From NCBI GenBank assembly GCA_003554395.1, contig PWGD01000148.1, positions 5,958 through 69,957 on the forward strand: a stretch of 64,000 bases of DNA, in the 5' to 3' direction. Of this stretch, positions 11,989 through 52,390 are shown in pieces. Position 1 is the stretch's first letter. Each line of letters starts with the position of its first letter. The notes below the pieces were generated by a model, which had not been told where the DNA came from, made no database searches, and worked only from the letters and a program-made list of their open reading frames with translations. Origin of the DNA: Syntrophomonadaceae bacterium. GTDB taxonomy: Bacteria; Bacillota; Dethiobacteria; DTU022. The translations under genes were made by a program, and so were the position numbers.

Positions 11989-12996
11989 ATGAAAAATAAA
12001 AATGTTGAAGTTTACGGCATCGGCAACCCCTTGATAGATGTCCTGGCGCACGTAAAGGATCAGGATATTGAGGCTCTCAAGTTGGAAAAGGGGACCATGA
12101 CCCTGATTGACACCGAACGGGGCAATGATATTTTAAAATACATCAATGATCGAGAAAAAAAGTATGCCTGCGGCGGGTCAGCCCCGAATACCATGATCAC
12201 CCTGGCCGCCCTGGGAGTTGAAACCGCCCTGGCCGGAATGGTGGGTAAAGATGAACTGGGTGGTATTTATAAAGAACGTCTTGAAGAAAAAAAGGTTCAA
12301 TCAGATCTATCGACCAGTGCAGTCGACACCGGCAGCTGTATAGTCCTGGTTACGCCTGATTATGAAAGGACTATGAGCACCAGGTTGGGCGCCTGCCGGG
12401 AATTTGGCCCCGGGAACGTTAATCATAAAATAATAAGCGAAGCCAATTATTTGTACTTTACCGGATATATGTGGGACACCGAGAATCAAAAGAAAGCTTT
12501 ACGCGAGGCAATTAAAACAGCCCGAAAAGCGGGGACCAGGGTGGCATTCGATCTGGCCGATCCGTTCGTGGTGGAAAGGCATTATGATGATTTCACCCGC
12601 CTGATCAAAGACAGCGTTGATGTTCTGCTGGCCAACCGCGAAGAAGCTAAGCTGATGCTTGGGTATGACGATCCGGAAAAAGCTTCAAAAGAATTGGCCC
12701 AAAACAACGTTATCGCCGCGGTCAAGAATTGCGCTGATGGTTCCTGTATAAGCTGCTCCGACGGGGGATGCTTCTCTATAGATGCTTATAAGGTTGATGC
12801 AGTCGACAGTACCGGTGCCGGGGACAATTACGCCGCAGGATTTCTGTACGGACTGATCAAAGGTTATTCTTATGCTGATGCCGGCAAACTGGCTTCTTTT
12901 GTTGCCGCTCAAATCGTAAGGCAAACCGGAGCCCAATTTGATGAAAAAAACAGTAAGGAAATTCGCAAAGCCATTGCTGAAAATAAGTGGCGATAA
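11989..12996 (+). CDS. PfkB-family carbohydrate/nucleoside kinase, adenosine-kinase-like
   Basis: It has the PfkB fold with an N-terminal GIGNPLIDV motif and a C-terminal DSTGAGDNYAAGFLYG (anion-hole/DTxGAGD) motif. Its position directly upstream of ahcY suggests adenosine as the substrate. Confidence 0.7.
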   Translation: MKNKNVEVYGIGNPLIDVLAHVKDQDIEALKLEKGTMTLIDTERGNDILKYINDREKKYACGGSAPNTMITLAALGVETALAGMVGKDELGGIYKERLEEKKVQSDLSTSAVDTGSCIVLVTPDYERTMSTRLGACREFGPGNVNHKIISEANYLYFTGYMWDTENQKKALREAIKTARKAGTRVAFDLADPFVVERHYDDFTRLIKDSVDVLLANREEAKLMLGYDDPEKASKELAQNNVIAAVKNCADGSCISCSDGGCFSIDAYKVDAVDSTGAGDNYAAGFLYGLIKGYSYADAGKLASFVAAQIVRQTGAQFDEKNSKEIRKAIAENKWR

Positions 12997-13033
12997 GAAA
13001 AATATATTTAAACAGGAGGGACAAGTGTAACAA

Positions 13034-14482
13034 ATGAGCGAAAAAACGAAAATGGATTACAAGGTAGCCGATATGAAACTGGCTTCTTGGGGAAGAAAAG
13101 AAATTGAGATGGCGGAGAAAGAAATGCCCGGTTTAATTGCCACCCGGGAAAAATACGCCCAGGACAAACCGCTTAGCAATCTGCGGGTTACCGGAAGCCT
13201 GCATATGACTATCCAAACTGCGGTTTTAATAGAAACCCTCGTAGAGCTTGGAGCCGCTGTCCGCTGGGCAAGCTGTAATATTTTTTCCACCCAGGATCAT
13301 GCCGCAGCAGCCGTTGTGGTCGGTCCACCTGAAAAAGGAGGGACGGAAGAGGATCCCAGAGGGGTACCGGTATTTGCCTGGAAAGGTGAAACCCTTGAAG
13401 AGTACTGGTGGTGTACTCAACAGGCTCTTTCTTTTGCGGCTGATAAAGGGCCTCACCAGATTGTCGATGATGGCGGAGATGCTACCCTGTTAATTCACCG
13501 CGGCTATGAGGCGGAGGATAATCCGGCCATCCTGGATGAGCCGACTTCAAATAATGAACTAAAAATTGTAAATAAATTGTTAAAAGATATACAGGCTGAA
13601 AATCCAAAATACTGGCATTCCATTGTCCCCGAGATCAGAGGGGTAAGCGAGGAAACCACTACCGGAGTTAACCGCCTTTACCAGATGGAAAGAAATAAGA
13701 CACTCTTATGTCCGGCAATCAATGTCAATGATTCGGTAACAAAAGGCAAATTCGACAACATTTACGGATGTCGCGAAAGCCTGGTTGATGGAATCAAAAG
13801 GGCGACAGATGTAATGATTGCCGGTAAAACCGCTTTTGTTGCCGGTTTTGGCGATGTGGGAAAAGGTTCAGCAGAAGCCCTGGATGCTTTCAAAGCCAGG
13901 GTCCTGGTTTCAGAAGTTGATCCAATCTGCGCCTTACAGGCAGCCATGGCCGGGTATTCAGTGGTAACAATTGAAGATGCTCTCCCGCATGCTGATATTT
14001 ATGTAACGGCAACCGGGAATAGAGATGTAATCAGGATCGAACACATGGAAAAAATGAAAGACATGGCCATAGTATGCAATATTGGCCACTTTGATAATGA
14101 AATCCAGGTTAATGAGCTTGAAAATTACCCGGGTATTAAAAAGGTCAATATCAAGCCCCAGGTAGACCAGTTTATTTTCCCCGATGGGCACAGTATAATT
14201 TTGCTGGCTGAGGGCCGGCTTGTAAATTTAGGTTGTGCTACCGGTCATCCCAGTTTTGTCATGTCCAACAGTTTCACTAACCAGGTTATGGCCCAGATTA
14301 ACCTGGCTCAGCATGATCGCGAATGCTCTGTCTTTCGGCTTCCCAAGGAACTCGATGAGGAAGTAGCTCGCCTGCACCTTGAAAAGATAGGGGCCCGCCT
14401 TACAGTGATGAACGATGAGCAGGCTGCATATATTGGCAAACAACCGGAAGGGCCCTATAAGCCGGATCATTACCGTTACTAA
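13034..14482 (+). CDS. ahcY: Adenosylhomocysteinase (S-adenosyl-L-homocysteine hydrolase)
   Basis: The N-terminus ([27 protein letters not shown]) and the NAD-binding GFGDVGKG motif are diagnostic of SAH hydrolase. It is 482 aa including the ~40-aa insert region. Confidence 0.9.
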
Positions 14483-18561: not shown

Positions 18562-19359
18562 ATGAAAAAGACCCATATTTTAATTACCAATGATGACGGT
18601 ATTTATGCCGAGGGTATTCAACGCCTCAGCCAGTGCCTGTATGAAAAAGACCGCGGCTACAAGCTTTCCATAGTGGCCCCCGATCGGGAGCGCAGCGCTA
18701 CCGGCCATGCCATCACCATGCATCGTCCTCTCCTGGTAGACCAGGTCAGCTACCTTCATAATCCTGAACTTACCGGATGGTGCGTTAACGGCACTCCATC
18801 GGACTGCGTAAAATTGGCGGTTGAGGCAATCCTGGAGGAAAAACCGGACCTGGTCATTTCCGGCATAAACCGGGGCAGCAACCTGGGGACGGACGTGCTC
18901 TACTCCGGGACTGTATCGGCTGCCATGGAAGGGCTGATCATGGGCATCCCTTCAATTGCCGTATCTCTAACAGGCAACGGGGAAGAAAAAAGTTTCGATT
19001 TTGCCGGTCAATTCATCTGCCACCTGTTCCCGCTTCTTTTAGAGGCAAACCTGCCCCCCTCAAGCCTGTTCAATATTAACATCCCTACTGATATTGAAAA
19101 TATCAGGGGAGTCCGCGCCACAATCCTTGGCAACAGGCGTTACCGTAACGCTTTTGAAAAAAGAATTGATCCCAGGGGGAGAGTATATTACTGGCTGGCC
19201 GGAGAATTGATTGACGATGACTATGAAAATGAAAATGCTGATACAAAAGCAGTCAGGGACGGTTATATATCAGTTACTCCGATCCATTTTCCGCTCACCA
19301 ATGAAAAGATTTTACCTGAACTAAAGGAAATACTAAAAAAAATGCCGCTCAAAATTTAG
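18562..19359 (+). CDS. surE: 5'/3'-nucleotidase SurE
   Basis: The N-terminus MKKTHILITNDDGIYAEGI is the SurE hallmark (ILxTNDDG). Size is 265 aa. Confidence 0.9.
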   Translation: MKKTHILITNDDGIYAEGIQRLSQCLYEKDRGYKLSIVAPDRERSATGHAITMHRPLLVDQVSYLHNPELTGWCVNGTPSDCVKLAVEAILEEKPDLVISGINRGSNLGTDVLYSGTVSAAMEGLIMGIPSIAVSLTGNGEEKSFDFAGQFICHLFPLLLEANLPPSSLFNINIPTDIENIRGVRATILGNRRYRNAFEKRIDPRGRVYYWLAGELIDDDYENENADTKAVRDGYISVTPIHFPLTNEKILPELKEILKKMPLKI

Positions 19360-19401: not shown

Positions 19402-20832
19402 TTGTCTATCATGGAACCGGCTGGTAAAAACTGTTACCGAATTCCGCGCCGGGGTAAAATGAAGGCCGATGTTTTAGTTTATCTGAATCGCCCGCTTTAC
19501 CACTCCTTTGCTGAAGATCAATCCCTGCAGCAGTTAATGGATGCCGCTTCATTGGAAGGGGTTCTCGATCCGGTTATTGGAATGCCCGATATCCATAGCG
19601 GTTTTGGCCTTCCTATTGGCGGCGTGATGGCCATGGATCCCGAGCGGGGATTGGTCTCGGCCGGGGCGGTTGGAATGGATATTAACTGCGGGGTCAGGCT
19701 GCTGCGCACCAATATCGATCCGGAAAACCTCGATAAAAGCACCTTAAGAGCATTAATCAAAGCCATCGAGAAAAGAGTTCCCAGCGGAGTTGGGAAAAAA
19801 AGCAAACACGAAGCTTTTATCAGCAAAAATTTTGAAGAGCTTATTCATGAGGGCGTCCCATTTCTAATAAATCAGGGTTATGGCAGGCCTGATGATCTGA
19901 GCGCTATTGAAGACGGCGGACGTATTTCCGGCGCCGACCTGGCTGCTGTTAGCAAAGAGGCCCGAAAGCGCGGTCTTCAGCTTTCGACTATCGGGGGAGG
20001 CAATCATTTTATTGAGCTTGGTTATGTGGAAACCGTCTTTGATCGCCCCGCGGCCGACATTTGCGGCCTTCGCGAGGGCCTGCTGACCATTTTGATCCAT
20101 ACCGGCAGCCGCGGTTTTGGGCACCAGATCTGCACGGATTACACCTCACAAATGAAAAAAGAGGCCGCCACGCATAATATAGATCTACCTTCTGCCGGCC
20201 TTGCTTCGGTTCCTATCAATTCAGATACAGGGCGTAGATATTTGGCTGCGATGGCCTGCGCCATAAACTTTGCTTTTTGTAACCGGCAGTGGATTACAGA
20301 TGATGTGCGAAAAGCCTTCAGCAGTGTCATTGGTGGGCCTGATAGCCAGTTTGACCTGGGCCTGGTCTATGATGTCGCCCACAATACAGCCCGCTTTGAA
20401 GCAATTAACGGCAAAGAGATGCTCATTCACCGCAAAGGAGCTACCAGGGCCCTTCCGCCCGGACATCCCGACAACCCCCGGCTGTACCTGTCCACCGGTC
20501 ATCCCGTACTGATCCCCGGCAGCATGGGCACCGCTTCATACGTAATCCGGGCCGAACCGGGGATTAACATGATCTATAATTCAGTTAACCACGGCGCCGG
20601 CAGGGTCCTTTCCAGGAGAGCGGCAAAAAAACAGATATCGGTCGAAGAATTGAAAGGAAGGCTTTCTGAAGTCCTGGTTTCCGGGCGAAGTTATAAAGCC
20701 TACCTGGATGAAGCTCCCCAGGCCTATAAAGATATTGAAATGGTTATCGACACTTTCGTGGAAATAGGTTTAAGCAGTAAGGTGGCCAGGTTGTTGCCAC
20801 TGGCCGTGATTAAGGGCGAAGGCAGCGATTAA
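19402..20832 (+). CDS. rtcB: RtcB-family RNA ligase (3'-phosphate/5'-OH ligase)
   Basis: It contains the metal/GTP-binding motifs GGGNHFIEL and HTGSRGFGHQ and the C-terminal NHGAGRV motif. Size is 476 aa. Confidence 0.9.
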   Translation: MSIMEPAGKNCYRIPRRGKMKADVLVYLNRPLYHSFAEDQSLQQLMDAASLEGVLDPVIGMPDIHSGFGLPIGGVMAMDPERGLVSAGAVGMDINCGVRLLRTNIDPENLDKSTLRALIKAIEKRVPSGVGKKSKHEAFISKNFEELIHEGVPFLINQGYGRPDDLSAIEDGGRISGADLAAVSKEARKRGLQLSTIGGGNHFIELGYVETVFDRPAADICGLREGLLTILIHTGSRGFGHQICTDYTSQMKKEAATHNIDLPSAGLASVPINSDTGRRYLAAMACAINFAFCNRQWITDDVRKAFSSVIGGPDSQFDLGLVYDVAHNTARFEAINGKEMLIHRKGATRALPPGHPDNPRLYLSTGHPVLIPGSMGTASYVIRAEPGINMIYNSVNHGAGRVLSRRAAKKQISVEELKGRLSEVLVSGRSYKAYLDEAPQAYKDIEMVIDTFVEIGLSSKVARLLPLAVIKGEGSD

Positions 20833-23511: not shown

Positions 23512-25893
23512 ATGAATAACAACAGAAGAGGGATGAATGAAAGGATAAAAAAATTAAGGCAGCAAAGCGAAGATACAAACCCGTCAATCACCGCTGAAAG
23601 AGCTTTGCTGGTCACTGAGGCTTATCAGCATTATGCCGGTAAAGTATCCGCACCAATACTCAGGGCGCTTACATTTCAGCACCTGCTGGAGAACAAGACC
23701 ATCTGCATCAATGAAGAGGAGCTGATAGTCGGAGAACGCGGAACCGGACCCCAGGCCACGCCCACTTACCCCGAATTGTGCTGCCATACCGTCGAGGATC
23801 TGGAAGTGATCAACAACCGTAAAACCATTTCTTTTAAGGTAAGTGAAGAGGTGAAGCGGATTCAGGAAGAAACTCTGATTCCTTACTGGCAGGGCCGTTC
23901 CATGCGGGATAAAATATTTAACAGGATGAGCCCTGAATGGCTTGACTGTTACAAAGCCGGACTATTTACCGAATTTATGGAACAGCGCGCACCCGGTCAT
24001 ACCGTGGCCGGAGATAAGATTTACCGGAAAGGGATGCTCGATCTAAAAGAAGAAATTGCCGCTGCCCTGGGCTCTCTTGATTTTGCCAATGACCCTGAAG
24101 CTGTTTCCAAGAACGAGCAGCTGGAAGCCATGTCTCTCTGTGCCGATGCCCTGATCACTTTTGCCGGCAGGCATGCCCAAAAAGCCCGGGAGATGGCGGA
24201 AGAAGAAACCAACCCCCGGCGCAAGGAAGAGCTGCAGCAAATTGCTTCTGTCTGTCAGCGTGTGCCGGCCCTGCCGCCCCGTAATCTCTGGGAAGCACTC
24301 CAGTATTACTGGTTCGTGCACCTGGGAGTGGTGACCGAACTTAATACCTGGGACGCCTTCTGCCCGGGAAGACTTGATCAACATCTGGCCCCCTTCTACT
24401 ACAGGGGCCTGGAAGAAGGAACGCTGACCAGGGCTGGAGCGAAAGAGTTGCTGGAATGCTTCTGGATCAAATTTAACAACCAGCCTGCTCCACCCAAGGT
24501 GGGAATTACTTTAAAGGAGAGCGGTACATATACCGATTTTGCCAACATCAACCTGGGTGGAGTTAAACCAGATGGCAGTGACGGTGTAAATGATGTTACC
24601 TATTTGCTGCTGGAAGTAATCGATGAGATGAGGCTGCTGCAGCCGAGCACCAACGTCCAGGTCAGTAAAAAAAGTCCCGACCTTTTCCTTAAAAAAGCAG
24701 GAGAGGTTATCAGGAAAGGGTGGGGCCAACCTTCAGTTTTTAATGTTGAAGCAGTCATCGGCGAACTGCTGGGCCAGGGCAAATCCCTGGTTGACGCCCG
24801 TTGCGGAGGAACCAGCGGCTGCGTGGAAACCGGCGCTTTTGGCAAAGAGAGTTATATCCTGACCGGGTATTTCAACCTGGTAAAGGTTCTCGAAATAACC
24901 CTTAACGGCGGTAAAAATCCGGCGGACGGCAAACAACTGGGCCTGGATACCGGCAGCCCGGAGCGGCTTGAAAATTTCGAGCAGCTGCTCGAAGCCTTTG
25001 AAAAACAGCTCCGCCATTTTATTGACATCAAAATCGCCGGCAACCAGGTCATTGAAAAATTATATGCTGAACAAATGCCGGCCCCATTTTTATCCCTGAT
25101 TATTGATGATTGCATCGATAAGGGCAAGGACTATAATGCCGGCGGGGCCCGCTATAACACCAATTATATACAGGGTGTGGGCATCGGTACCATTACCGAC
25201 AGCCTTTCAGCGCTTAAAAAGCATATCTATGATGAAAAGAATTTTACCTGGGATGAACTGCTCGATACCTTAAAAGACAACTACCAGGGGCAGGAACAGG
25301 CCCGGCAATTTTTGATCCATAAAACCCCGCATTATGGAAACGATAATGACTATGCCGACTCTGTCATGCAGGATGTTTTTAAACGTTTTTACCGCACCGT
25401 GGACGGGCGCAGGACGGCCCGCGGGGGAACATATCGCATCAATATGCTGCCCACCACCTGCCACGTCTATTTTGGGTCGGTCATTGGAGCGACACCTGAT
25501 GGGCGCCTGGCCGGAATGCCCTTATCGGAAGGTATTTCACCGGTCCAGGGCGTTGATTTAAACGGGCCCACAGCGGTAATTAAATCAGCCTCGAAGATGG
25601 ATCACCTGCTTACCGGCGGCACCCTGCTGAACATGAAATTTACCCCCCGGATCCTGGAGGGAAACAAGGGGTTGGATAGCCTGGCCCAGCTGATCCGGTC
25701 ATATTTCATACTGGACGGCCACCATATCCAGTTTAATGTAATCGATGCCGAGACCCTGCGCGAGGCTCAAAATAATCCGGAACAATACCGCAGCCTGATC
25801 GTAAGGGTGGCCGGATACAGCGACTATTTCAATAACTTAAGCGAACAGCTTCAAAATGAGATCATTGCCCGGACGGCCCATGAAATGGGCTAA
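23512..25893 (+). CDS. Glycyl radical enzyme of the pyruvate-formate-lyase superfamily, eliminase (GCVE) clade. It is a candidate 4-hydroxyproline dehydratase or diol dehydratase type, with substrate unresolved.
   Basis: The C-terminal glycyl-radical motif is LIVRVAGYSDYFNNL (RVxGY). The active-site segment DARCGGTSGCVETG carries a Cys-x-Glu pair as in glycerol dehydratase, CutC and HypD. Size is ~794 aa. A GAGGA site lies 7 nt before ATG 23512; the ORF track starts at GTG 23497. Confidence 0.85.
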   Translation: MNNNRRGMNERIKKLRQQSEDTNPSITAERALLVTEAYQHYAGKVSAPILRALTFQHLLENKTICINEEELIVGERGTGPQATPTYPELCCHTVEDLEVINNRKTISFKVSEEVKRIQEETLIPYWQGRSMRDKIFNRMSPEWLDCYKAGLFTEFMEQRAPGHTVAGDKIYRKGMLDLKEEIAAALGSLDFANDPEAVSKNEQLEAMSLCADALITFAGRHAQKAREMAEEETNPRRKEELQQIASVCQRVPALPPRNLWEALQYYWFVHLGVVTELNTWDAFCPGRLDQHLAPFYYRGLEEGTLTRAGAKELLECFWIKFNNQPAPPKVGITLKESGTYTDFANINLGGVKPDGSDGVNDVTYLLLEVIDEMRLLQPSTNVQVSKKSPDLFLKKAGEVIRKGWGQPSVFNVEAVIGELLGQGKSLVDARCGGTSGCVETGAFGKESYILTGYFNLVKVLEITLNGGKNPADGKQLGLDTGSPERLENFEQLLEAFEKQLRHFIDIKIAGNQVIEKLYAEQMPAPFLSLIIDDCIDKGKDYNAGGARYNTNYIQGVGIGTITDSLSALKKHIYDEKNFTWDELLDTLKDNYQGQEQARQFLIHKTPHYGNDNDYADSVMQDVFKRFYRTVDGRRTARGGTYRINMLPTTCHVYFGSVIGATPDGRLAGMPLSEGISPVQGVDLNGPTAVIKSASKMDHLLTGGTLLNMKFTPRILEGNKGLDSLAQLIRSYFILDGHHIQFNVIDAETLREAQNNPEQYRSLIVRVAGYSDYFNNLSEQLQNEIIARTAHEMG

Positions 25894-25922
25894 AATACAA
25901 CTGCTTTAAAATGCGGCGGCGC

Positions 25923-25951
25923 GTTGACATTAAGATCTAAATAAGCTAAAA
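25923..25951 (+). promoter_or_regulatory. Sigma-A-type promoter for tRNA-Trp
   Basis: TTGACA, then 17 nt, then TAAAAT. It ends ~12 nt upstream of the tRNA 5' end. Confidence 0.55.
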
Positions 25952-25963
25952 TATGAGCTGTGA

Positions 25964-26039
25964 AGGGGAGTAGCTCAACTGGCAGAGCAGCGGTCTCCAA
26001 AACCGCAGGCTGCGGGTTCAAGTCCTGTCTCCCCTGCCA
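25964..26039 (+). tRNA. tRNA-Trp (anticodon CCA)
   Basis: AGGGGAGUAGCUCAACUGG…CGGUCUCCAAAACCG…GGUUCAAGUCC…CUCCCCUGCCA. Anticodon is CCA. Length is 76 nt. Confidence 0.85.
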
Positions 26040-26147
26040 TCGAGCTTGACGAGATGCCGCTTTAAAAGCGGCATCTCGCTAGATTGATCATTTAAAAGGA
26101 GAAGGCCTATGACCGGCCATGACTGGAAAATTTTACCTGAACCTTTT

Positions 26148-26185
26148 AGATCTACTTTTAAAAGTCGAAACCGGCTTTTTTTTTT
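26148..26185 (+). terminator. Hairpin plus U-tract downstream of tRNA-Trp
   Basis: AAAAGTCG-aaac-CGGCTTTTTTTTTT. A longer GC hairpin without a U-tract lies directly after the tRNA at 26050–26080. Confidence 0.4.
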
Positions 26186-26299
26186 GCTCAAGGCAATTAT
26201 AGTTGAAACCGGTAGTCTGTTCGATAGAAATATTTATCGGAACAACTTATTAGCTTATTAAGGGGCTATTAATAGAAATAACTTTAAGGAGGGATTCAT

Positions 26300-27316
26300 T
26301 TGCATACTACTAATATTATACTATGGGGACTGGGAGCTATGGGTTCAGGTATTTACAAAGTTCTCCTGGAGCGCAGTGGCCCCGTTGTAAAAGGGGCAAT
26401 CGGCCAAAATCCCTTTAAGCTGGGCAAAGATTTGGGCACTATCCTGGGCATGGAACCAACCGGAACTATTATTTCCGGAGATGCGCAGGCAGTGCTTGAA
26501 AATGCCGATGCAGGGCTGGTTCTCCATTCCACCGGCTCATTCTTCAAAGAAATACATCACGAATTAATGCAGGCGGTCCGGGCGGGATGTAACGTCATTA
26601 CCATAGCTGAGGAGATGGCCGAGCCCTGGGCGGCCGATCAGATGCTGGCTGACGAGCTAAACGAAGAAGCTAAAAAATTTGGTGTTACAGTTATTGGAAC
26701 GGGCATTAATCCCGGTTTTGTCCTGGATGCCCTGGCCATCTGCCTTACCGGTGCCTGCTGTCAGGTCACCAAGATCGAGGCCGAAAGAATTAACGATCTA
26801 TCTCCATTCGGAAGCACTGTAATGGCTACCCAGGGTGTAGGGATTAGTCCGGAGCAATTTAAAAAGGGGATTGAGAATAACACTATTGTCGGGCATATAG
26901 GTTTCAAACAATCGATCTGCCTGATTGCCAGGGCTTTAAACTGGGATCTTGATCAAATTACCGAAGAAAAAGAGCCGATTATCTCATCTACTTACCGGGA
27001 GACTCCATATGTCAAAGTAGAGCCGGGCATGGTTGCCGGCTGCAATCACCGCGCCTACGGTTATATAAACGGCGAAGCAGTAATCACCCTTAAACACCCC
27101 CAGCAGGTATGCCCTGAAGCAGAAAACGTGGAAACCGGTGATTATATCAGAATTGAGGGCACCCCGCCGATAAACCTGTCCATAAAGCCTGAAATCCCGG
27201 GCGGCCTGGGAACGATGGCCATGGCGGTTAATATGATCCCGGTGGTGACTGCTGCCGGTCCGGGCTTGAAAACACTGCTGGACCTGCCTTTCCCTTCCTG
27301 CTGGAGCAGGGTATAG
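26300..27316 (+). CDS. ord: 2,4-diaminopentanoate dehydrogenase (DapB-like NAD(P) fold) of the ornithine oxidative pathway
   Basis: The N-terminal Rossmann motif is IILWGLGAMGSGIYKVL. The ~340-aa size and the position directly upstream of ortA, ortB, oraS and oraE match the described ornithine fermentation cluster. AGGAGGG lies before TTG 26300. Confidence 0.7.
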   Translation: MHTTNIILWGLGAMGSGIYKVLLERSGPVVKGAIGQNPFKLGKDLGTILGMEPTGTIISGDAQAVLENADAGLVLHSTGSFFKEIHHELMQAVRAGCNVITIAEEMAEPWAADQMLADELNEEAKKFGVTVIGTGINPGFVLDALAICLTGACCQVTKIEAERINDLSPFGSTVMATQGVGISPEQFKKGIENNTIVGHIGFKQSICLIARALNWDLDQITEEKEPIISSTYRETPYVKVEPGMVAGCNHRAYGYINGEAVITLKHPQQVCPEAENVETGDYIRIEGTPPINLSIKPEIPGGLGTMAMAVNMIPVVTAAGPGLKTLLDLPFPSCWSRV

Positions 27317-27397
27317 CCGAATTAAAAAGGTTTTAATTTAACTGTAATTCAAAAAGCGGGCGGTTAAGAGCAATCTGCCCTGAAAGGAGAATCAACT

Positions 27398-27712
27398 ATG
27401 GAAAAAGCGCAGACAGGTGACTGGGTCCAGGTCTTCAAAGTGGTTCTCAAACCGGAGGAAAGAGCCCCCGGCCTGCCCCCGGAAACTGCCAAAGTCCCCC
27501 TGACTATGAAGGTTAAGGGTTTCCTGATCGATCAAGCGGCCGCGGTTGGCGATCAGGTAGCAATCCGGACTGCAACAGGCAGAAAAGTGGAGGGGAAGCT
27601 GATCGGGATCAATCCGGCCTACGAGATCGATTATGGCCGGCCCCAGCCGGAACTATTAAATATAGGCTTTGAAACAAGAAGCCTGTTAAGTGGGGAGGCC
27701 GACAAGCAGTGA
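27398..27712 (+). CDS. ortA: 2-amino-4-ketopentanoate thiolase, small (alpha) subunit
   Basis: It is ~104 aa, translationally coupled to the PLP subunit that follows, and conserved in gene order with ord upstream. Confidence 0.65.
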   Translation: MEKAQTGDWVQVFKVVLKPEERAPGLPPETAKVPLTMKVKGFLIDQAAAVGDQVAIRTATGRKVEGKLIGINPAYEIDYGRPQPELLNIGFETRSLLSGEADKQ

Positions 27713-29127
27713 ATAACAACCCTGATTTTAGCTACCAGGGAGTAATGTCCAGGAAAAACCGGATTATGAAGCAGGCTGTAGGTATCGACTATGATCAGTT
27801 CGAGCTGGAGGGGATTGCCTTTGATTACGATGCAATGATGAACAAGGCCGGTTATTCACTGGAAGAAGTGCGTAAAATCCAGGAGGAAACCAATGTGGGC
27901 AAAACCCCGCTCTTTGAAATGCATAACCTGACCAAGCTGGTACGCCTCCATGCGGAACCGGGAAAAGGAGCGCGCATTTTTATCAAGGATGAAGCCTGCA
28001 ATCCCAGCGGCAGTTTCAAGGCGCGGCGGGCTTCGCTATCATGTTACCAGGCCCAAAAGCAAGGCTACAGGGGCGTAATATCGGCCACCAGCGGCAATTA
28101 CGGCGCCGCAGTGGCCTCCCAGTCCGCCATGCGCGGTTTGAACTGCATCGTGGTCCAGGAACTTTTCGACAGCCAGGATTTAAGCCAACCGGAAATTATG
28201 GAAAAAGGCCGGGCCTGCGAAGCCTACGGCGCTGAAGTGGTCCAGCTTTCCGTGGGGCCGGAGCTGTTTTACAAGTTCCTGATTTTGCTGGAAGAGACGC
28301 AGTATTTCAATGCCTCATTATATACCCCTTTCGGTATTGCCGGCATTGAAACTCTCGGCTATGAACTGGCCGAACAGGTTCGCCGGACGGTGGGCAAAGA
28401 TCCTGCCGCTGTCCTTATCACCCATGCCGGGGGCGGAAATGTGACCGGCACAGCCAGAGGCCTTCAAAAAGCGGGTTGTAAAGATACAGATGTGATCGGC
28501 ATCAGTGTCGACTTAAGCGGCCTGCACATGGCCAGCGATCACGATTTCAACCGGAAATCATTTACTACCGGCCACACCGGTTTTGGGGTTCCCTTTGCCA
28601 CTTGGCCGGACCGGGCTGATGTGCCGCGAAATGCGGCCCGTTCCTTGAGGTACCTGGATCGCTATTATACGGTGACCCAGGGTGAAGTTTTTTACATGAC
28701 CGAACTCCTGGCCCAGTTGGAAGGGCTTGAAAGAGGCCCGGCAGGCAATACTTCCCTGGCCGGAGCTTTTGCCTTAGCCATGGAAATGGACCGCGACGAT
28801 GTCATTGTTGTACAGGAAACAGAATACACGGGAGCCGGAAAGCACCCCAGCCCCCAGCTTACTTTTGCCCGCAAACTGGGCATAGCGGTAAAAAGGGGCA
28901 AGCCTGAAGAGAGCATCCCCGGTCAGAATATTATCATCCCTGAATCCCCGGCCCAGATAGCGGTTAAAAGGGTAGACCTGGACAACTTAAAAAAATCGTA
29001 CCTAAAGAAGGTGGCCCAGGAAAAGGGCGGTGGAGCCTTGAGTCCGGTAGAACTGGATTATCTGGCCGCCGAACTGAAGACTTCAACCGGATGGGTTGAA
29101 AAACATTACGGGAAGGCAGGAGGATAA
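27709..29127 (+). CDS. ortB: 2-amino-4-ketopentanoate thiolase, PLP-dependent beta subunit (tryptophan-synthase-beta/threonine-synthase fold)
   Basis: The fold-type II PLP lysine motif is NPSGSFKARRA, and a glycine-rich loop TSGNYGAAVA is present. It is ~472 aa and overlaps the ortA stop (GTGA). Confidence 0.7.
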   Translation: MNNNPDFSYQGVMSRKNRIMKQAVGIDYDQFELEGIAFDYDAMMNKAGYSLEEVRKIQEETNVGKTPLFEMHNLTKLVRLHAEPGKGARIFIKDEACNPSGSFKARRASLSCYQAQKQGYRGVISATSGNYGAAVASQSAMRGLNCIVVQELFDSQDLSQPEIMEKGRACEAYGAEVVQLSVGPELFYKFLILLEETQYFNASLYTPFGIAGIETLGYELAEQVRRTVGKDPAAVLITHAGGGNVTGTARGLQKAGCKDTDVIGISVDLSGLHMASDHDFNRKSFTTGHTGFGVPFATWPDRADVPRNAARSLRYLDRYYTVTQGEVFYMTELLAQLEGLERGPAGNTSLAGAFALAMEMDRDDVIVVQETEYTGAGKHPSPQLTFARKLGIAVKRGKPEESIPGQNIIIPESPAQIAVKRVDLDNLKKSYLKKVAQEKGGGALSPVELDYLAAELKTSTGWVEKHYGKAGG

Positions 29128-29128
29128 T

Positions 29129-29497
29129 ATGAAGCGCGAGGATGATTACAGGCAGCGCCGTTCCACGGTGAAAAATTTAACCGATGAGCAGCTGGATCAT
29201 AAATTTTGGGGACTAACCGACCAAGTGGTTAACCCCCTTTTCGAGCTGGCCCGGGGCCATACTTCACCATCTATTGAACGTTCCGTCCTGCTGAGGATGG
29301 GCTTTTCCAGCCTGGAGGCCAAGCAAATCGTCCTGAATTGCGGTAAATATGGCCTGCTGGGCAAAGGAGCAGGGCACGTAGTGCTGCGCTTTGCCCAAAA
29401 ACGCAACCTGCCATACCGGGAAGCCGGCTTAATTTTGGCCGAGGGCCGGGAATGGGATCAGGCTGCAGCCTTGTTTGAAAAGGAGGGGCCATCTTGA
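29129..29497 (+). CDS. oraS: D-ornithine 4,5-aminomutase, small (S) subunit
   Basis: It is ~122 aa from the ATG preceded by GGAGG (MKREDDYRQRRS…). It lies immediately upstream of, and overlapping, the large E subunit. The ORF track has a longer N-terminal extension from 29096. Confidence 0.65.
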   Translation: MKREDDYRQRRSTVKNLTDEQLDHKFWGLTDQVVNPLFELARGHTSPSIERSVLLRMGFSSLEAKQIVLNCGKYGLLGKGAGHVVLRFAQKRNLPYREAGLILAEGREWDQAAALFEKEGPS

Positions 29498-31710
29498 AAC
29501 TAACACCGGAACAAAAACTTTCCCCTGAAGAGATTTTAAAAGACCTGGACCGGTACAGACCAAGACGCAAAGGCTGGACCTGGCGCCGCTCGATAAAGGA
29601 TGATGATGCTAAAATTGGGCCCTTTGAATACCGGCAGGCTGCTGAACCCCTCAAAAAAAGTATTCCCCTGCCTGCGGCCAAATCATTTGGCGGCATAGAT
29701 CCGCACCCTGGTTGTGTGGTCACCTCGGAAATTGCTTCCGGGCGTTTTGAAGATGATCTCCGCCGGATGAGGATGGTGGCCTGGCACGGGGCCGACCATC
29801 TCATGGTTATTCGGACCGCGGGGCAAAGCCACTTCGACGGTTTAATCGAAGGCACTCCTGAAGGAGTAGGCGGGGTGCCCATTTCAAGAAAGCAGATCCG
29901 GGCCACCCGCAAAGCCCTGGACCTGATTGAAGATGAAGTAGGTAGACAGCTTAACTTTCATTCCTACATAAGCGGGGTGGCCGGCCCGGAAATAGCCGTT
30001 CTTTTTGCTGAAGAAGGGGTTAATGGCGCCCACCAGGACCCTCAGTACAATGTCCTTTACCGGAATGTAAACATGTACCGCTCTTTTGTCGATGCGGCTG
30101 TAGCCAAAAAATTAATGCTTTCTGCCAATATCCTGCAGATAGACGGGGCCCATAACGCCAATGCTACGGCCAGGGAAGCCTGGAAGGTGATGCCGGAACT
30201 ATTAGTGCAGCATGCCATAAACTGCCGCTATTCGGAACTTGTCGGCATGCCCCGGGAAAACATCGCTCTTTCTACGGTTCCGCCAACCGCACCGCCGGCC
30301 CCGGCCCTGCGCATAGACCTGCCTTACGCGGTGGCCCTGCGCCAGCTTTTTAAAGATTTTAAAATGCGGGCCCAGATGAACACCAAGTATATGGAATCAT
30401 GCACCAGGGAAGTAACCGTTACCCACCCCCTCAACCTGCTCTTATCGAGACTGACCAGCGCCGATATCCAGAGCACAATTACTCCCGATGAAGGACGTAA
30501 CGTGCCCTGGCATTACAATTCTGTTCATGCCGTCAATACGGCCAGGCAGGCCCTGATCGGCCTGGATGGGATTACGGACATGGTTAAATTAAACCTGGAA
30601 GGAGAACTGGGCCATAAATCCCGGGAATTAAAAGAACGGGCCGTGCTCTTCCTGGAGGAAATCCTGGAAGTTGGAGGTTATTTTGCCGCTGTTGACCAGG
30701 GCTTTTTTGTCGATTCCGGCTTTTACCCGGAACGAAACGGGGACGGCATTAAACGTGATCCCGCGGGCGGGGTGGCATCCGATTCTATAGTGCCCCGCGA
30801 AGAGGATTATTATGCCCCCGTCTGCCACCACTTTGGATACAACAACCCGCCAATTGATTTTGGGGATCATTCTTCACCATGCGCCCCCATCGATGGTTGC
30901 TCCCTCTGCCGACCCGAAAAAATTATATACATTGACGAATTAGACCCTGAAGACAATGTTGAAAAAAGACTTGAGAAAAGCAGGCAATACCGGGAGAATA
31001 CCTTTAAGCCTGAAGCAGAGTGGGCCGGCGACGGAATTGTAACCATGACCATGTTACTGCCAGTATCTGAAGACATGGCAGAATATGGCGCCATGGATAT
31101 TGCCGGGCGTATGAACCTGGAAGATGTCGAAGTGATTAACCTGCAAAAAATGCACCCCGCGGAAGGCACCCTGGTAGAAATCAAAGGCAGGGTCGGTTTC
31201 AGCCTTGACCCGAAGAATATAACCATACCTCATAAAGAAGCTGTCCTTTCAGAAGAGGAAATCCGCCTGGCGGTCCAGAACAGGCCTCTCACTATAGTGG
31301 CCGGCACCGTCGGCGAAGACGAACATTCAGTTGGCATGAGAGAGATTCTTGACATTAAGCACGGTGGGCTGGAGGGATTTGGCATAGACTGCCACTACCT
31401 GGGAACATCGGTGCCGATCGAAAAGATGGCTGATGCTGCAGTCGAACTTGATGCCGACGCTATTTTGATCAGCACTATTATCACCCACAATGATGCTCAC
31501 CGTCAGAGTATGCGCAAACTAAACCAGGTTTGCCGGGAAAAAGGGCTGCGCGACGAGTTAATCTTAGTTGCCGGAGGAACCCAGGTAACCAATGAAATCG
31601 CCCAGGAAGAAGGTCTCGATCGGGGTTTTGGTCGAGGAACCAAGGGGATTGATGTTGCCAGTTTCCTGATCAAAAAAAAGGATTCGGTGGAAAAGAATCG
31701 TGAAAATTGA
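29494..31710 (+). CDS. oraE: D-ornithine 4,5-aminomutase, large (E) subunit, adenosylcobalamin- and PLP-dependent
   Basis: It is ~738 aa. The C-terminal B12-binding domain carries a DxHxxG motif (EDEHSVG) and a GG…GTQ Rossmann-like segment. The N-terminal TIM-barrel part is aminomutase-like. Confidence 0.75.
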   Translation: MKLTPEQKLSPEEILKDLDRYRPRRKGWTWRRSIKDDDAKIGPFEYRQAAEPLKKSIPLPAAKSFGGIDPHPGCVVTSEIASGRFEDDLRRMRMVAWHGADHLMVIRTAGQSHFDGLIEGTPEGVGGVPISRKQIRATRKALDLIEDEVGRQLNFHSYISGVAGPEIAVLFAEEGVNGAHQDPQYNVLYRNVNMYRSFVDAAVAKKLMLSANILQIDGAHNANATAREAWKVMPELLVQHAINCRYSELVGMPRENIALSTVPPTAPPAPALRIDLPYAVALRQLFKDFKMRAQMNTKYMESCTREVTVTHPLNLLLSRLTSADIQSTITPDEGRNVPWHYNSVHAVNTARQALIGLDGITDMVKLNLEGELGHKSRELKERAVLFLEEILEVGGYFAAVDQGFFVDSGFYPERNGDGIKRDPAGGVASDSIVPREEDYYAPVCHHFGYNNPPIDFGDHSSPCAPIDGCSLCRPEKIIYIDELDPEDNVEKRLEKSRQYRENTFKPEAEWAGDGIVTMTMLLPVSEDMAEYGAMDIAGRMNLEDVEVINLQKMHPAEGTLVEIKGRVGFSLDPKNITIPHKEAVLSEEEIRLAVQNRPLTIVAGTVGEDEHSVGMREILDIKHGGLEGFGIDCHYLGTSVPIEKMADAAVELDADAILISTIITHNDAHRQSMRKLNQVCREKGLRDELILVAGGTQVTNEIAQEEGLDRGFGRGTKGIDVASFLIKKKDSVEKNREN

Positions 31711-33055
31711 TCTACTAGTTGCAGATATCGGAAGCACCATTACTATGATTAGTGCCTTTGATGGCCTGGGTATCGGGCGGCCCGCCTTCCTGGGCCAGGG
31801 GCAGGCTCAAACTTCAGTAGAGTCTGAAGATGTTACTATTGGGCTTTCCAAGGCCCTGGTCAACCTGGAAGAAAAGCTAGGTGAAAAAATAGCCTGGGAT
31901 CGTTTTTTAGCCTCCAGTTCGGCAGCGGGCGGTTTAAGAATGTCCGTCCATGGCCTGGTTTACGATATGACCGCGAAGGCCGCCAAAGAAGCAGCCCTGG
32001 GAGCGGGCGCAGTTGTTAGCATGGTTACAGCCGGCGAGCTCACTGAAGAGAATCTGGAGGGCCTGACTGCAGTTAATCCCAGTATCATCCTCCTGGCCGG
32101 AGGAGTAGATCACGGAGAAAAAGAGACCATCTTAAAAAATGCATCTCTACTCAGCAGCTGGTTAAGAGAGCAGGGAAAAACCCTTCCGGTCATTTACTGC
32201 GGCAACCAGGCTGCGTTTAAAAAGGCCCATAGCATATTCAGAGATAAAGAGCTTTCCCTGATCAATAGCGAAAACGTATATCCTAAAATAGATCAATTAA
32301 ACGTAGAGCCGGTGCGAAGAGAGATACATCGTGTTTTTAACAGGCATATTGTTGAAGCCAAGGGAATGGAAAAAATACGCTCTATGGTGGAAGAAGAAAT
32401 AATCCCCACCCCGGGGGCAGTCATGGAAGCCTCTCTTCTGTTTTATAAGCATAGGGGGGATTTGCTGGTTTTTGATGTTGGAGGGGCTACGACAGATGTG
32501 CATTCTGTAACAGATGGTTCCGATGATATTCAACACCTGCTGCTTCACCCCGAACCTAAAGCTAAAAGAACTGTCGAAGGAGATCTGGGGGTATATCGGA
32601 ATGCTCCCCGTTTGATTGAACTGTGCATGGAAAATAGCAACAACCCAGGATTTGAGAGCAATCTTCAGGCCGGTATTGAACCGATCCCCGGCAGCAGCCG
32701 GCAGATCGAACTGATCGGGATTCTGACCGAACAGGCTTTAAAAACAGCCCTGATCAGGCATGCTGGATCCTGGCGCTATATATATGGTCCTACAGGCCGT
32801 CAGACAATGGTTGAAGGTAAAGATCTCACCTGCATAAAAACGGCAATCGGAACCGGGGGCGCCCTGTCCCAATTGCCGGGAGGGAAAGAAAAAATGGCGA
32901 AGGCCCTGAAAGGTAAAACCGGCCTTGAGTTGCTGCCCCGCGGTGATGTGATGCATTTAATAGACAATTACTATATAATGGCTGCAGTAGGGGTTCTCAG
33001 CATGAGCGACCCCGATAGTGCCTGGCAGCTTTTATCCAGAAGTCTAAACTTATAA
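31700..33055 (+). CDS. GlmL/MutL-like actin-fold accessory protein, a putative reactivase/chaperone for the B12 aminomutase
   Basis: The N-terminus [17 protein letters not shown] is an ASKHA phosphate-1 motif. It is ~450 aa, as for glutamate-mutase GlmL/MutL-type proteins, and is translationally coupled to oraE. Confidence 0.55.
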
Positions 33056-33078: not shown

Positions 33079-34278
33079 GTGATTTCAATTACCAGTACAA
33101 AGGAAATACTAAGTATCACTGAACAGTATGGGGCCCGTAATTATCTGCCGCTGCCGGTTGTCTTATCACGGGCGGAAGGAGTATGGGTTGAAGATCCGGA
33201 GGGCAACCGCTACATGGATATGCTCAGCGCCTATTCGGCTATGAATTTTGGCCATCGGCATCCTAAAATTATCAAAACATTAAAAGAACAGGCGGACCTG
33301 ATTACGGTCACTTCCAGGGCTTTTAATAACGATAAGCTGGGCCCTTTTTGTAAAAAATTAGCGCTGCTAACGGGTAAAGAAAAAGTCTTGCCCATGAATA
33401 CAGGAGCTGAAGCGGTGGAAACTGCGATCAAGGCCGTCCGCAGGTGGGCCTATCGCAAGAAAAATATTCCAGAAAATAAAGCAGAAATCATAACCTGTAC
33501 CAATAACTTTCACGGCCGGACTACAACCATCATTTCTTTCAGCACAGATGAAACCTGCCGCAGCGATTTCGGGCCCTTTACCCCAGGATTTAAATTAATT
33601 GAATATGGCGATATCGAGGCCCTGAAAAAAGCAATAACCCCTAATACGGCCGGCCTGCTCATCGAACCGATTCAAGGCGAGGGGGGGATTATCATCCCTC
33701 CGGAAGGCTACCTTCGGGAGGCCTACCGGCTGTGCCGGGAAAACAATGTTTTGTTTATGGCCGATGAGATTCAAACCGGCCTGGGCCGCACCGGCAGGCT
33801 TTTTGCCTGTGACTGGGAGGATGTTACACCCGATGTGTATATCCTGGGCAAAGCCTTAGGAGGTGGAGTGTTGCCGGTTTCAGCCGTCACCGCTGACAAC
33901 TATATCATGGATGTTTTCGATCCCGGTTCACACGGGTCCACTTTCGGAGGCAATCCGCTGGGCGCCGCCGTGGCCATGACCGCTTTAGATGTTCTGGAAG
34001 AAGAACAACTGGTTCGCAAATCTGAGGAGAATGGAAAGTACTTCGTGGAAGAGCTAAGAAAAATAAACAGCCCGCACCTGGTTGAAGTTAGAGGTAGAGG
34101 GCTTTTGGTAGGGATGGAGCTCAAAGTCAAAGCGCGGTCGTACTGTAAAAAACTGATGGAGTTAGGGATCCTTTCCAAGGAAACCCATGTTAACGTAATC
34201 AGGTTTACTCCACCATTAATTTCCACTAAGAAGGAGTTGGACTGGGCCCTGGAAGCGATCAAAAAAGTATTTGCGTGA
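33079..34278 (+). CDS. rocD: Class III (omega) aminotransferase, ornithine–oxo-acid aminotransferase-like
   Basis: The N-terminus …[48 protein letters not shown]… closely follows the ornithine aminotransferase consensus. The motifs [10 protein letters not shown] and [11 protein letters not shown] are present. Confidence 0.8.
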
Positions 34279-34837
34279 TTAAATTAACAAATAAAAATTT
34301 TTAAAAAGCTATTGACAAATTAGCAGTACCGATCAATAATACCAGTACCAGGTTCCGAGAGACTGGAACGCGAACCGGGTTCGGTCGAGAGGGAAGGCCG
34401 GAAGTGAAGGAAGGGTTAACCCGAATTCACGGAAGGTTATCCACAAGGCCGAATCGCTGCAGGAGCCGGTAAAAGAAAGGCTTAAGAGCCGGGATTTACC
34501 GGAAATCACAGCACGGAGAAAAGTAGCTGTCCGGAGGTTGGGGGGAAAGCCATCCAGAGGTGGTGGCGGAAGCCCGGCTGTAGAGGGGTCAGTGAAGAAA
34601 TCCGACGGTGAGCTGGAAGGCCTGTTGGGACCTGGTTTATTATGAATGGCCCTTATTACAGTTTCAACCTGCGCTGTCTTACTTCTTATCCTAAAAGCTT
34701 ATTCACCTTTGCTTTTAAGCCCTATCCAAAAAGTATGGCCCGGAATATAGCCACATATCTTCATCCCCTAGCTATTGCATTAATTATGCCATTTGGTTAG
34801 AATAAGTGTTAAGTTTTAAAAGAGAGGAAAGATTAAA

Positions 34838-35653
34838 ATGAACAGTGAAAAAATTGGTTTAATTGGCTGTGGAGCGATGGGTTCGGCCCTGGCAAAAGGG
34901 ATCGTAAAAAGAGTAGGTATCGATCCGGCTTTAGTATACCTTTATGACCTTAACCGCGATCGTGTTGAGGAGCTGGCCCTTGAATTGAATGCTGTCGGCG
35001 CAGATAACCTGGAAGAGCTGATTACGCAATGCCGGCAGGTATTTATCGCCGTGAAACCACAGGATATTGAAAGCCTTCTTTATTCAATAAAAGATTTGGT
35101 GCATAAAGGCCAGATCTTTGCTTCTATTGCAGCCGGTATAACCATTAGTTTTATAGAAAGTTGTTTACCTCCGTCCAGCAAGGTAATTCGCCTGATGCCC
35201 AATACCCCCTGCTTATTGGGCGAAGGGTCAATCGCGATCAGCGCCGGTGACAATGTAACGCCGGAAGAACGCGAGCATATTGAAAAACTCCTCAAATCGA
35301 TGGGTTTAACTATACGCATTCCGGAATACCTGATGGATGCGGCAACCGGCTTGAGCGGGACCGGTCCGGCATACGTATTCCTGTTCATTGAAACAATGAT
35401 TGATGCCGGGGTAGCGGTTGGGTTCCGCCGCGATGTGGCATCTGAGATGGTGGTTCAGAATGTTATTGGCTCAGCCCGCATGCTCCAGGAAAACAACAAG
35501 CAGCCCCCGGCCGAGCTGAGAAACTCTGTAACTTCACCGGCAGGAACGACCACGGCAGCTATGCATGTGTTGGAGGAATCCGGTTTTCGAAGCTGCCTGC
35601 TTAAATCAGTAATTGCGGCCACAAATCAAGCGGAGAAATTACGCCGTGGTTGA
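34838..35653 (+). CDS. proC: Pyrroline-5-carboxylate reductase
   Basis: The N-terminus KIGLIGCGAMGSALAKGI (Rossmann) and the C-terminal P5CR dimerisation motifs (…SPAGTTTAAMHVLEE…) are present. Confidence 0.9.
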   Translation: MNSEKIGLIGCGAMGSALAKGIVKRVGIDPALVYLYDLNRDRVEELALELNAVGADNLEELITQCRQVFIAVKPQDIESLLYSIKDLVHKGQIFASIAAGITISFIESCLPPSSKVIRLMPNTPCLLGEGSIAISAGDNVTPEEREHIEKLLKSMGLTIRIPEYLMDAATGLSGTGPAYVFLFIETMIDAGVAVGFRRDVASEMVVQNVIGSARMLQENNKQPPAELRNSVTSPAGTTTAAMHVLEESGFRSCLLKSVIAATNQAEKLRRG

Positions 35654-52099: not shown

Positions 52100-52390
52100 T
52101 TAAAACAAGGCATAAAAAAACTTTCGCCTAAGAGACGAAAGTTAATTTCGCGGTACCACTCTTCTTGACGGCATGACATCTACCGCCCACTCTTATAGAT
52201 AACGGAAGTCTCCGGCCAATCCTAGTTTTGGCCTGTAAAGCCAAGTTCGGTTGGCGGCTCACGGATGAGTTCACAGGTTCCGCAATGCCGCCTTCCACCA
52301 TACGGCGGCTCTCTGGGGATGGCATTGCCTGTTACTGCTTCCGATCACAGCCTTTTGCCTGATCAAATCAATTATTGTAAGGTTACCTAA
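52100..52390 (-). promoter_or_regulatory. T-box riboswitch leader for leuA/cimA, comprising Stem I with specifier loop, the T-box antiterminator and an intrinsic terminator
   Basis: The minus strand reads …UGUGAUCGGAAGCAGUAACAGG…AGAGAG…GGAACCUGUGAACUCAUCC…AAGAAGAGUGGUACCGCGAAAUUAACUUUCGUCUCUUAGGCGAAAGUUUUUUUAUG. The T-box core AGAGUGGUACCGCG is present. A terminator hairpin (AACUUUCG…CGAAAGUU) plus U7 partly overlaps the antiterminator. A candidate specifier GAA-CUC-A suggests Leu. Confidence 0.75.

Follow-up and report, generated by a model that had tools for sequence, protein, structure and literature searches.

What is encoded in the long non-coding stretch upstream of proC? Within the window analysed here, the whole 64-kb stretch of DNA, the interval from 34290 to 34837 is flanked by a class-III aminotransferase gene (33079-34278, ornithine-aminotransferase-like) and by proC (34838-35653, identified with a Pfam scan), and proB and then proA follow downstream of proC. 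The first-pass annotation described the interval as a GC- and purine-rich leader that could act as a cis-regulator of proC, and mentioned a small RNA gene and a decayed gene remnant as alternatives. Our analysis argues for the small RNA gene. We propose, with a probability of about 0.7, that positions 34312-34643 are a self-contained gene for a structured non-coding RNA of about 290 nucleotides, belonging to a family that is absent from Rfam 15.

Composition of the interval upstream of proC

The non-coding stretch before proC consists of two unlike parts, the RNA gene and an AT-rich spacer. From 34345 to 34640 the GC content is 0.53-0.58, the GC and AT skews are both positive, and the purine fraction of 0.645 is essentially the window maximum (296-nt windows have a mean of 0.52 with a standard deviation of 0.04). 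The last ~200 nucleotides (34645-34837) are AT-rich, with a GC content of 0.34-0.41 and skews that are negative or near zero. The purine bias of the + strand reported earlier is thus real, and the description as GC- and purine-rich is correct for the part from ~34345 to 34640 but not for the AT-rich part that follows. A second stretch as purine-rich as the RNA, at 12900-13240, is ordinary coding sequence, in which a sugar/adenosine-kinase-like ORF ends and an S-adenosylhomocysteine-hydrolase-like ORF begins.

The ORF listing agrees with the earlier statement that 34290-34837 contains no ORF of at least 60 amino acids; the largest ones have 58 amino acids (34333-34509, - strand) and 52 amino acids (34642-34800, + strand). 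The motifs quoted in the first-pass annotation are likewise present in the sequence. Genes resembling D-ornithine aminomutase and MutL are located upstream of the aminotransferase/proC interval. On the other side, the listed proB ORF begins with a TTG at 35613, so that its first 41 nucleotides (35613-35653) are shared with the end of proC; since the tblastn match of the relatives to proB begins ~50 nucleotides past the end of proC, the true start of proB is probably located further downstream.

Promoter and putative termination point of the RNA gene

The promoter of the RNA gene is predicted at 34312-34340 on the + strand, with a -35 box TTGACA (34312-34317), a 17-bp spacer and a -10 box AATAAT (34335-34340). 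In a consensus scan it matches 11 of the 12 consensus positions, and seven nucleotides separate the -10 box from the sequence CCAGG. This geometry is shared by the relatives described below: TTGACA, the 17-bp spacer and a -10 box (AATAAT, TATTAT, TAATAT or CATAAT) were found in 70 of 70 copies examined, and the distance between the -10 box and CCAGG is exactly seven nucleotides in 64 of these. The RNA gene therefore has a promoter of its own at a fixed distance from a conserved 5' end. Both this promoter and a second one at 34775-34803, which is discussed with proC, had been overlooked in the first-pass annotation.

The predicted RNA comprises positions 34347-34636 (+ strand, ~290 nucleotides), its 5' end being deduced from the promoter and its 3' end from a T-run. 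This T-run, TTTATTAT (34636-34643, + strand), lies directly 3' of the terminal helix P1 and is the putative termination point; five to six T residues are present in the eight nucleotides after P1 in 67 of 67 copies. The consensus scan detected no terminator on the + strand, and the P1 stem in front of the U-run is a long-range helix and not a local hairpin. The earlier statement that no obvious terminator exists is correct as far as a local hairpin terminator is concerned, but it missed the T-run that directly follows the terminal helix. A helix enclosing 250 nucleotides is an unusual intrinsic terminator. In the window the U-run is interrupted (TTTATTAT), so that some read-through towards proC is likely.

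Relatives and covariation

The + strand from 34345 to 34660 folds with a predicted energy of -123.6 kcal/mol (z = -4.4), which none of 100 shuffled sequences reached, compared with z = -1.4 for the - strand.

A proC-based scan with one genome per species returned 80 loci, and in 13 of them the element is located directly upstream of proC. The 13 carrier genomes are all metagenome-assembled, are labelled Syntrophomonadaceae or Bacillota and come mostly from soda-lake sediments. In the distant loci among them the conserved block comprises only the promoter and the RNA (~34300-34640) and not the ~200 nucleotides before proC. Metagenomes were scanned for exact matches to the invariant 19-mer CCAGGTTCCGAGAGACTRR, which yielded 67 contigs; 63 of these contain the RNA according to an HMM and a covariance model derived from the 13 genome copies. 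Since a single exact 19-mer was used to find all the metagenome copies, relatives more divergent than these would be missed. Altogether about 65 related copies were collected, of which 13 come from genomes of soda-lake Bacillota and the others from metagenomes, and as far as sampled the RNA appears to have a narrow distribution, being found in soda-lake and related Bacillota. With the covariance model, R1, a single copy was detected in the 64-kb window, at 34345-34646 with 292 bits, and the related loci gave 71 matches.

Compensatory base changes were found in each of three alignments. In the 13 genome copies, aligned with MAFFT and analysed with RNAalifold, 25 of 69 pairs show compensatory changes. 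The first-pass annotation had suggested examining related spacers for structure and covariation. The element is a conserved structured RNA: in the 71 model-aligned copies 90.9% of the cells are paired and 47 of the 69 pairs show double changes (485 cells), a result reached by none of 500 shuffles, and pairing drops to 27-50% when the 3' partners are slid by one to three columns. This alignment was fitted to the model, whereas the alignment of a divergent subgroup of 30 members (MAFFT, folded de novo with RNAalifold) is independent of it; here 95.8% of the cells are paired and 34 of 75 pairs are compensatory, again with none of 500 shuffles reaching this value. The compensatory changes thus go beyond the controls, as for a structured RNA, and the architecture of helices P1 to P5 is the same in the 30-member subgroup and in the 71-copy alignment.

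Other identities for the element were tried and rejected. A repeat or mobile element is excluded by the single copy in the window and the lack of a plasmid or phage homologue, no homologue of the RNA having been found in the plasmid and phage collections searched; a single viral contig matched the 3' motif of the RNA by chance, and the RNA itself is absent there. A coding RNA was rejected as well, since the longest ORF changes its frame, position and sequence from member to member and no conserved reading frame exists.

One 1.3-kb metagenome contig (L131, 1-1290) opens with the 3' part of an RNA copy and closes with the 5' part of a second, near-identical one, and between the two parts a gene pair for a VapC (PIN)-like protein and an AbrB-like antitoxin is located on the other strand. 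This arrangement would be due either to a tandem duplication around an inserted toxin-antitoxin pair or to a wrap-around in the assembly.

Predicted fold of the RNA

In the predicted fold, helices P1 and P2 close a four-way junction that carries the three hairpin domains P3, P4 and P5. The 5' strand of P1 (ACCAGGUUCCGAGAGACU, 34347-34364, + strand) pairs with its 3' strand (GGCCUGUUGGGACCUGGU, 34619-34636, + strand). The helix has 16 pairs, of which 12 are invariant, and 99.4% of the cells are paired. The 3' strand AGGYCUGUUGGRRCCUGG is nearly invariant in all copies and lies outside the search pattern. The 5' 19-mer was the search pattern itself, so that a constant 5' strand is in part imposed on the metagenome copies; the 13 genome loci, detected via proC, show an invariant 5' strand too. 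P1 contains a conserved G·G mismatch and, in the subgroup of the window copy, a GGAA/GGAA internal loop beside P2. P2 (34369-34377 with 34606-34614, + strand) has seven pairs, all with compensatory changes, and is the weakest helix, with 78-84% of the cells paired.

The three domains follow each other on the + strand. P3 (34378-34455) consists of four stacked helices with compensatory changes in 18 of 20 pairs and was recovered independently in the subgroup fold. P4 (34456-34512) has a conserved base GCUG/CAGC, an interior of variable length and a conserved apical GAAAGG; its base helix is 99.3% paired, and its interior helices were resolved in the subgroup alignment. P5 (34514-34604) again consists of four stacked helices, with a conserved GGAGG, an apical hairpin UCYRNAGRGG and compensatory changes in 18 of 22 pairs. 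Sequence conservation is concentrated in P1 (ACCAGGUUCCGAGAGACUG with AGGYCUGUUGGRRCCUGGU), with smaller patches at the apical GAAAGG of P4 and at the GGAGG and apical hairpin of P5, while in P3, P4 and P5 the shape is conserved more than the sequence. Column covariation established no pseudoknot or tertiary pairs; the top column-pair signals only reflect the split between the two subgroups, and a pseudoknot is therefore not claimed.

Neighbouring genes and the promoter of proC

Clustering of the flanking ORFs showed that in about 30 copies, which form a subgroup of ~323 nucleotides (loci L105, L099, L100, L108 and about 25 other metagenome loci), the RNA is located between opposite-strand genes, a divergent N-ATPase-like operon and a convergent hpt gene. 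The operon has the order beta, epsilon, two small membrane proteins and subunit a, and reads like one for an N-type (Na+) ATPase. Inspection of locus L090 by eye placed the end of the hpt ORF ~10 nucleotides from the end of the RNA. Since these ~30 copies are flanked by two genes on the opposite strand, a 5' leader cannot occupy this position. In the other subgroup the RNA usually has the aminotransferase gene on its upstream side, and what varies is the downstream gene: it is proC, a gene for a NuoE/NuoF-like fusion, an aldehyde dehydrogenase gene or an aminotransferase-like gene. The names N-ATPase-like, hpt-like, RtcB-like, SurE-like, NuoE/NuoF-like and aldehyde dehydrogenase are based on reading the translations and not on profile searches.

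In one context the RNA is thus accompanied by amino-acid catabolism genes, with RtcB-like and SurE-like genes nearby, and in the other by the N-ATPase-like operon and hpt; no gene is common to both contexts, and no candidate protein partner is consistently adjacent. Several relatives have the SurE-like and RtcB-like genes upstream of the RNA at a distance of one or two genes. In the window they are found at 18562-19350 and 19411-20829, and ~13 kb lie between them and the RNA. The intervening stretch (noted as 23512-33055) contains a glycyl-radical-enzyme-like gene of ~790 amino acids (23512-25881), a tRNA-Trp (25964-26039) and an ornithine aminomutase-like cluster. The names of these genes were taken from tblastn matches to the neighbour clusters and from the translations and not from Pfam.

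At the proC locus a second promoter is predicted at 34775-34803 (+ strand), with TTGCAT (34775-34780), a spacer of 17 bp and TAGAAT (34798-34803). Downstream of this promoter come a GAGAGG ribosome-binding site and the start codon (ATG at 34838). The consensus scan misses this promoter because its -35 box matches only three of six positions, yet TTGC and TA.AAT are invariant in 12 loci in which the surrounding spacer cannot be aligned and varies from ~20 to 260 nucleotides between RNA and proC. In the window this variable spacer (34644-34774, + strand) is AT-rich and is not conserved beyond close relatives. It contains, on the - strand, a terminator-like hairpin with a T-run (34734-34755), and no minus-strand gene ends nearby.

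The NuoE/NuoF-like genes downstream of the RNA are also preceded by a promoter of their own, TTGACA-17-TATAAT, between the RNA and the gene. In five loci (L106, L112, L087, L095 and L125) the fusion genes 3' of the RNA encode ~800 amino acids and have near-consensus TTGACA-17-(TG)TATAAT promoters. These genes are followed by an iron-sulfur/flavoprotein-like gene of ~900-1300 amino acids, and they resemble the diaphorase modules of hydrogenases or formate dehydrogenases. At the proC and at the NuoEF-like loci a promoter therefore separates the element from the gene, which is not the arrangement of a cis-acting leader.

Moreover, R1 found no copy of the RNA in 54 other proC loci, including proCBA operons with a proC that is 70-87% identical. 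When ten proC loci lacking the RNA were searched against Rfam, neither a T-box nor another leader was found; only a neighbouring tRNA-Trp was detected. As judged from these comparisons, proCBA would be read from its own promoter at 34775-34803 and the RNA would not regulate proC, and the earlier interpretation as a proC leader does not hold in view of this promoter, the opposite-strand flanks in ~30 loci and the 54 proC loci without the RNA. Read-through into proC is possible but superfluous for explaining proC expression. For the window copy and about half of the family, the next gene lies on the same strand as the RNA and 60-270 nucleotides away, and the RNA may have a secondary cis effect on that gene by read-through.

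Search for known RNA classes

With Rfam 15 at the gathering score, the scan of the window gave no match to the RNA region, and a permissive scan of 34200-34900 with E values up to 10 gave only noise and no T-box. Eight loci with divergent members, scanned with E values up to 1, likewise showed no relevant match. ARAGORN did not detect a tmRNA at the RNA gene, and neither OLE, raiA, ROOL, GOLLD and HEARO nor the other Rfam 15 families matched the RNA with their covariance models. The first-pass annotation had recognised no riboswitch class or T-box in the region, in line with these searches, and had pointed to a canonical T-box elsewhere in the window, which is genuine (52128-52357, - strand, 125.6 bits). 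In the literature searched we found no description of this RNA, and measured against Rfam 15 and this literature the family is new. As it differs from OLE, raiA and the Rfam families, departs from the T-box in every defining feature examined and is not linked to a regulated gene as a riboswitch would be, we rate it as a new family of no assignable known kind.

Alternative explanations

An RNA that lies on the proC strand, has a complex aptamer-like four-way junction closed by P1 and continues directly from P1 into a U-run could also be a riboswitch-like conditional terminator. In this scheme the junction and P1 would be held in place by a bound ligand or protein, P1 and the U-run would then act as the terminator, and in the absence of the ligand read-through would raise the expression of proCBA. 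The U-run is the sole terminator candidate between the RNA and proC, and several of the downstream genes have to do with the chemistry of proline, P5C or NAD(P)H. However, conserved promoters of the downstream genes themselves are located 3' of the RNA, the RNA-proC spacer of ~20 to 260 nucleotides is unconserved, and no conserved alternative antiterminator pairing was found. About 30 members have no downstream gene on the same strand at all, and in this divergent subgroup read-through would make an antisense RNA against hpt. In addition, many proCBA operons lack the RNA, and the constant neighbour is the upstream aminotransferase gene and the variable one the downstream gene, the reverse of what a cis-regulator shows. 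We therefore consider a conditional terminator unlikely. A degenerate T-box or another proline-responsive leader has the position before proC and the motifs AGAGA and GGUGGUGGCGG in its favour, but the region gives no score at E values up to 10, compared with the 125.6 bits of the genuine T-box in the window. Furthermore, the ten proC loci without the RNA carry no T-box that the RNA could have replaced, and the RNA is also found at loci unrelated to amino-acid genes. Non-functional filler or a pseudogene remnant fares no better, since the abundant compensatory base-pair changes and the lack of a conserved reading frame exclude the decayed gene considered at the outset. To these last possibilities taken together we assign a negligible probability.

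The strong promoter, the single copy in the window and the paired 5' and 3' ends are typical of housekeeping RNAs, and a divergent 6S, SRP, RNase P or tmRNA could have been missed by the Rfam models in this lineage. 6S RNAs are poorly conserved in sequence, which counts for this explanation; they fold into a rod whose closing and terminal stems are separated by a large central bubble, and the SRP fold is elongated. The consensus found here is instead a covarying four-way junction with three hairpin domains and fits neither the 6S rod nor the SRP fold. The universal motifs of RNase P and SRP RNAs, as they are generally known, are missing from it, the searches with E values up to 10 (window copy) and up to 1 (eight divergent members) matched no such family, and ARAGORN finds no tmRNA, so that a housekeeping RNA is very unlikely. 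The purine-rich sequence (63% on average), the GAGAGA stretch in the invariant 5' end and the 14 GGA triplets of the window copy, which tie the window maximum, might suggest a sponge that titrates a protein via GGA or purine-repeat motifs, similar to CsrB for CsrA or as an Hfq binder. CsrB-type sponges contain many repeated GGA motifs in similar short hairpins. Against this, the RNA has a single non-repetitive multi-domain fold with long-range helices, GGA occurs 13.2 times per RNA where 10.2 are expected from base composition, and only two GGA positions are conserved in at least 60% of the members; a sponge function is thus highly improbable.

Proposed role of the RNA

The product of the gene is probably an independent, stable, structured RNA that acts in trans. 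According to our proposal, the strong sigma-70-type promoter would start transcription at about A34347, the first nucleotide of P1. The transcript would fold such that P1 and P2 close the four-way junction with the long hairpin domains P3, P4 and P5, and the U-run straight after the 3' strand of P1 would most likely end it. With its ends paired in P1 and transcription stopping at the U-run, the molecule would thus be a closed, exonuclease-protected RNA able to act in trans. The invariant P1 helix is probably an element for protein recognition as well as for termination. The most plausible role for the RNA would be that of a part of a ribonucleoprotein, in which the nearly invariant, mismatch-containing P1 would be the site recognised by the protein and the three shape-conserved domains would supply the fold.

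Whether the RNA founds a new class of large RNAs with tertiary structure, specific to haloalkaliphilic anaerobic Bacillota and with a biochemical role of its own, is a more tentative question, to which we give slightly less than even odds. If so, it could be a ribonucleoprotein scaffold, a sensor or possibly a catalyst of a standing comparable to OLE or raiA, and a protein would dock at its invariant terminal helix, which contains the mismatch. Large bacterial RNAs with elaborate folds supported by covariation are rare, and each of the known classes (RNase P, tmRNA, 6S, OLE, ROOL/GOLLD and raiA) has exposed new biology or stays an open problem. The known distribution of the new RNA is narrow and its hosts are uncultured or hard to grow, which limits the impact of the finding. 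On the other hand, the RNA is well delimited by its predicted promoter, +1 position, closing helix and U-run, its almost invariant terminal helix looks like a recognition element, and the ~65 natural variants suffice for structure modelling. The analysis also corrects a tempting mis-annotation, as proCBA appears to be preceded in these genomes by a simple promoter and not by a T-box or riboswitch.

Comparison with known systems

Like the T-box (RF00230), the RNA of the window is found upstream of an amino-acid biosynthesis operon in a member of the Bacillota, has a comparable length and contains an AGAGA motif. Unlike the T-box it has no local terminator/antiterminator pair, does not match RF00230 and is not tied to the downstream gene; instead of being the same-strand leader of an aminoacyl-tRNA synthetase or amino-acid gene, it is found with opposite-strand flanks or in front of a NuoE/NuoF-like gene. 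With riboswitches that use P1 as the terminator stem it shares a junction closed by P1 and a P1 3' strand that is followed by a U-run, but its members have no downstream regulon in common and half of them face a convergent gene. A strong promoter and paired termini are also found in 6S and SRP RNAs, and the RNA is present in a single copy in the region examined; its branched four-way fold differs from their rod.

The closest parallels are provided by OLE and the raiA-motif RNAs. Like the RNA described here, these are encoded by stand-alone genes and have a multi-domain fold supported by covariation, with patches of invariant nucleotides amid structurally conserved helices. They likewise occur in anaerobic or (halo)alkaliphilic Bacillota and have a biochemical function that is not obvious from the neighbouring genes. 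OLE RNA works as a ribonucleoprotein (PMC7936274, PMC12054373), and we propose the same mode of action for the new RNA. The hosts of the new RNA are adapted to high pH and salt, and OLE RNA is likewise linked to stress adaptation. The differences lie in size and architecture: OLE has ~600 nucleotides, compared with ~290-325 nucleotides for this RNA, and in contrast to OLE and raiA the RNA is predicted to have one four-way junction only, with a long, invariant terminal helix that closes it. When the neighbouring genes were read, none stood out as encoding an OLE-associated protein, and OLE and raiA also differ from the RNA in sequence and structure as judged by their Rfam models.
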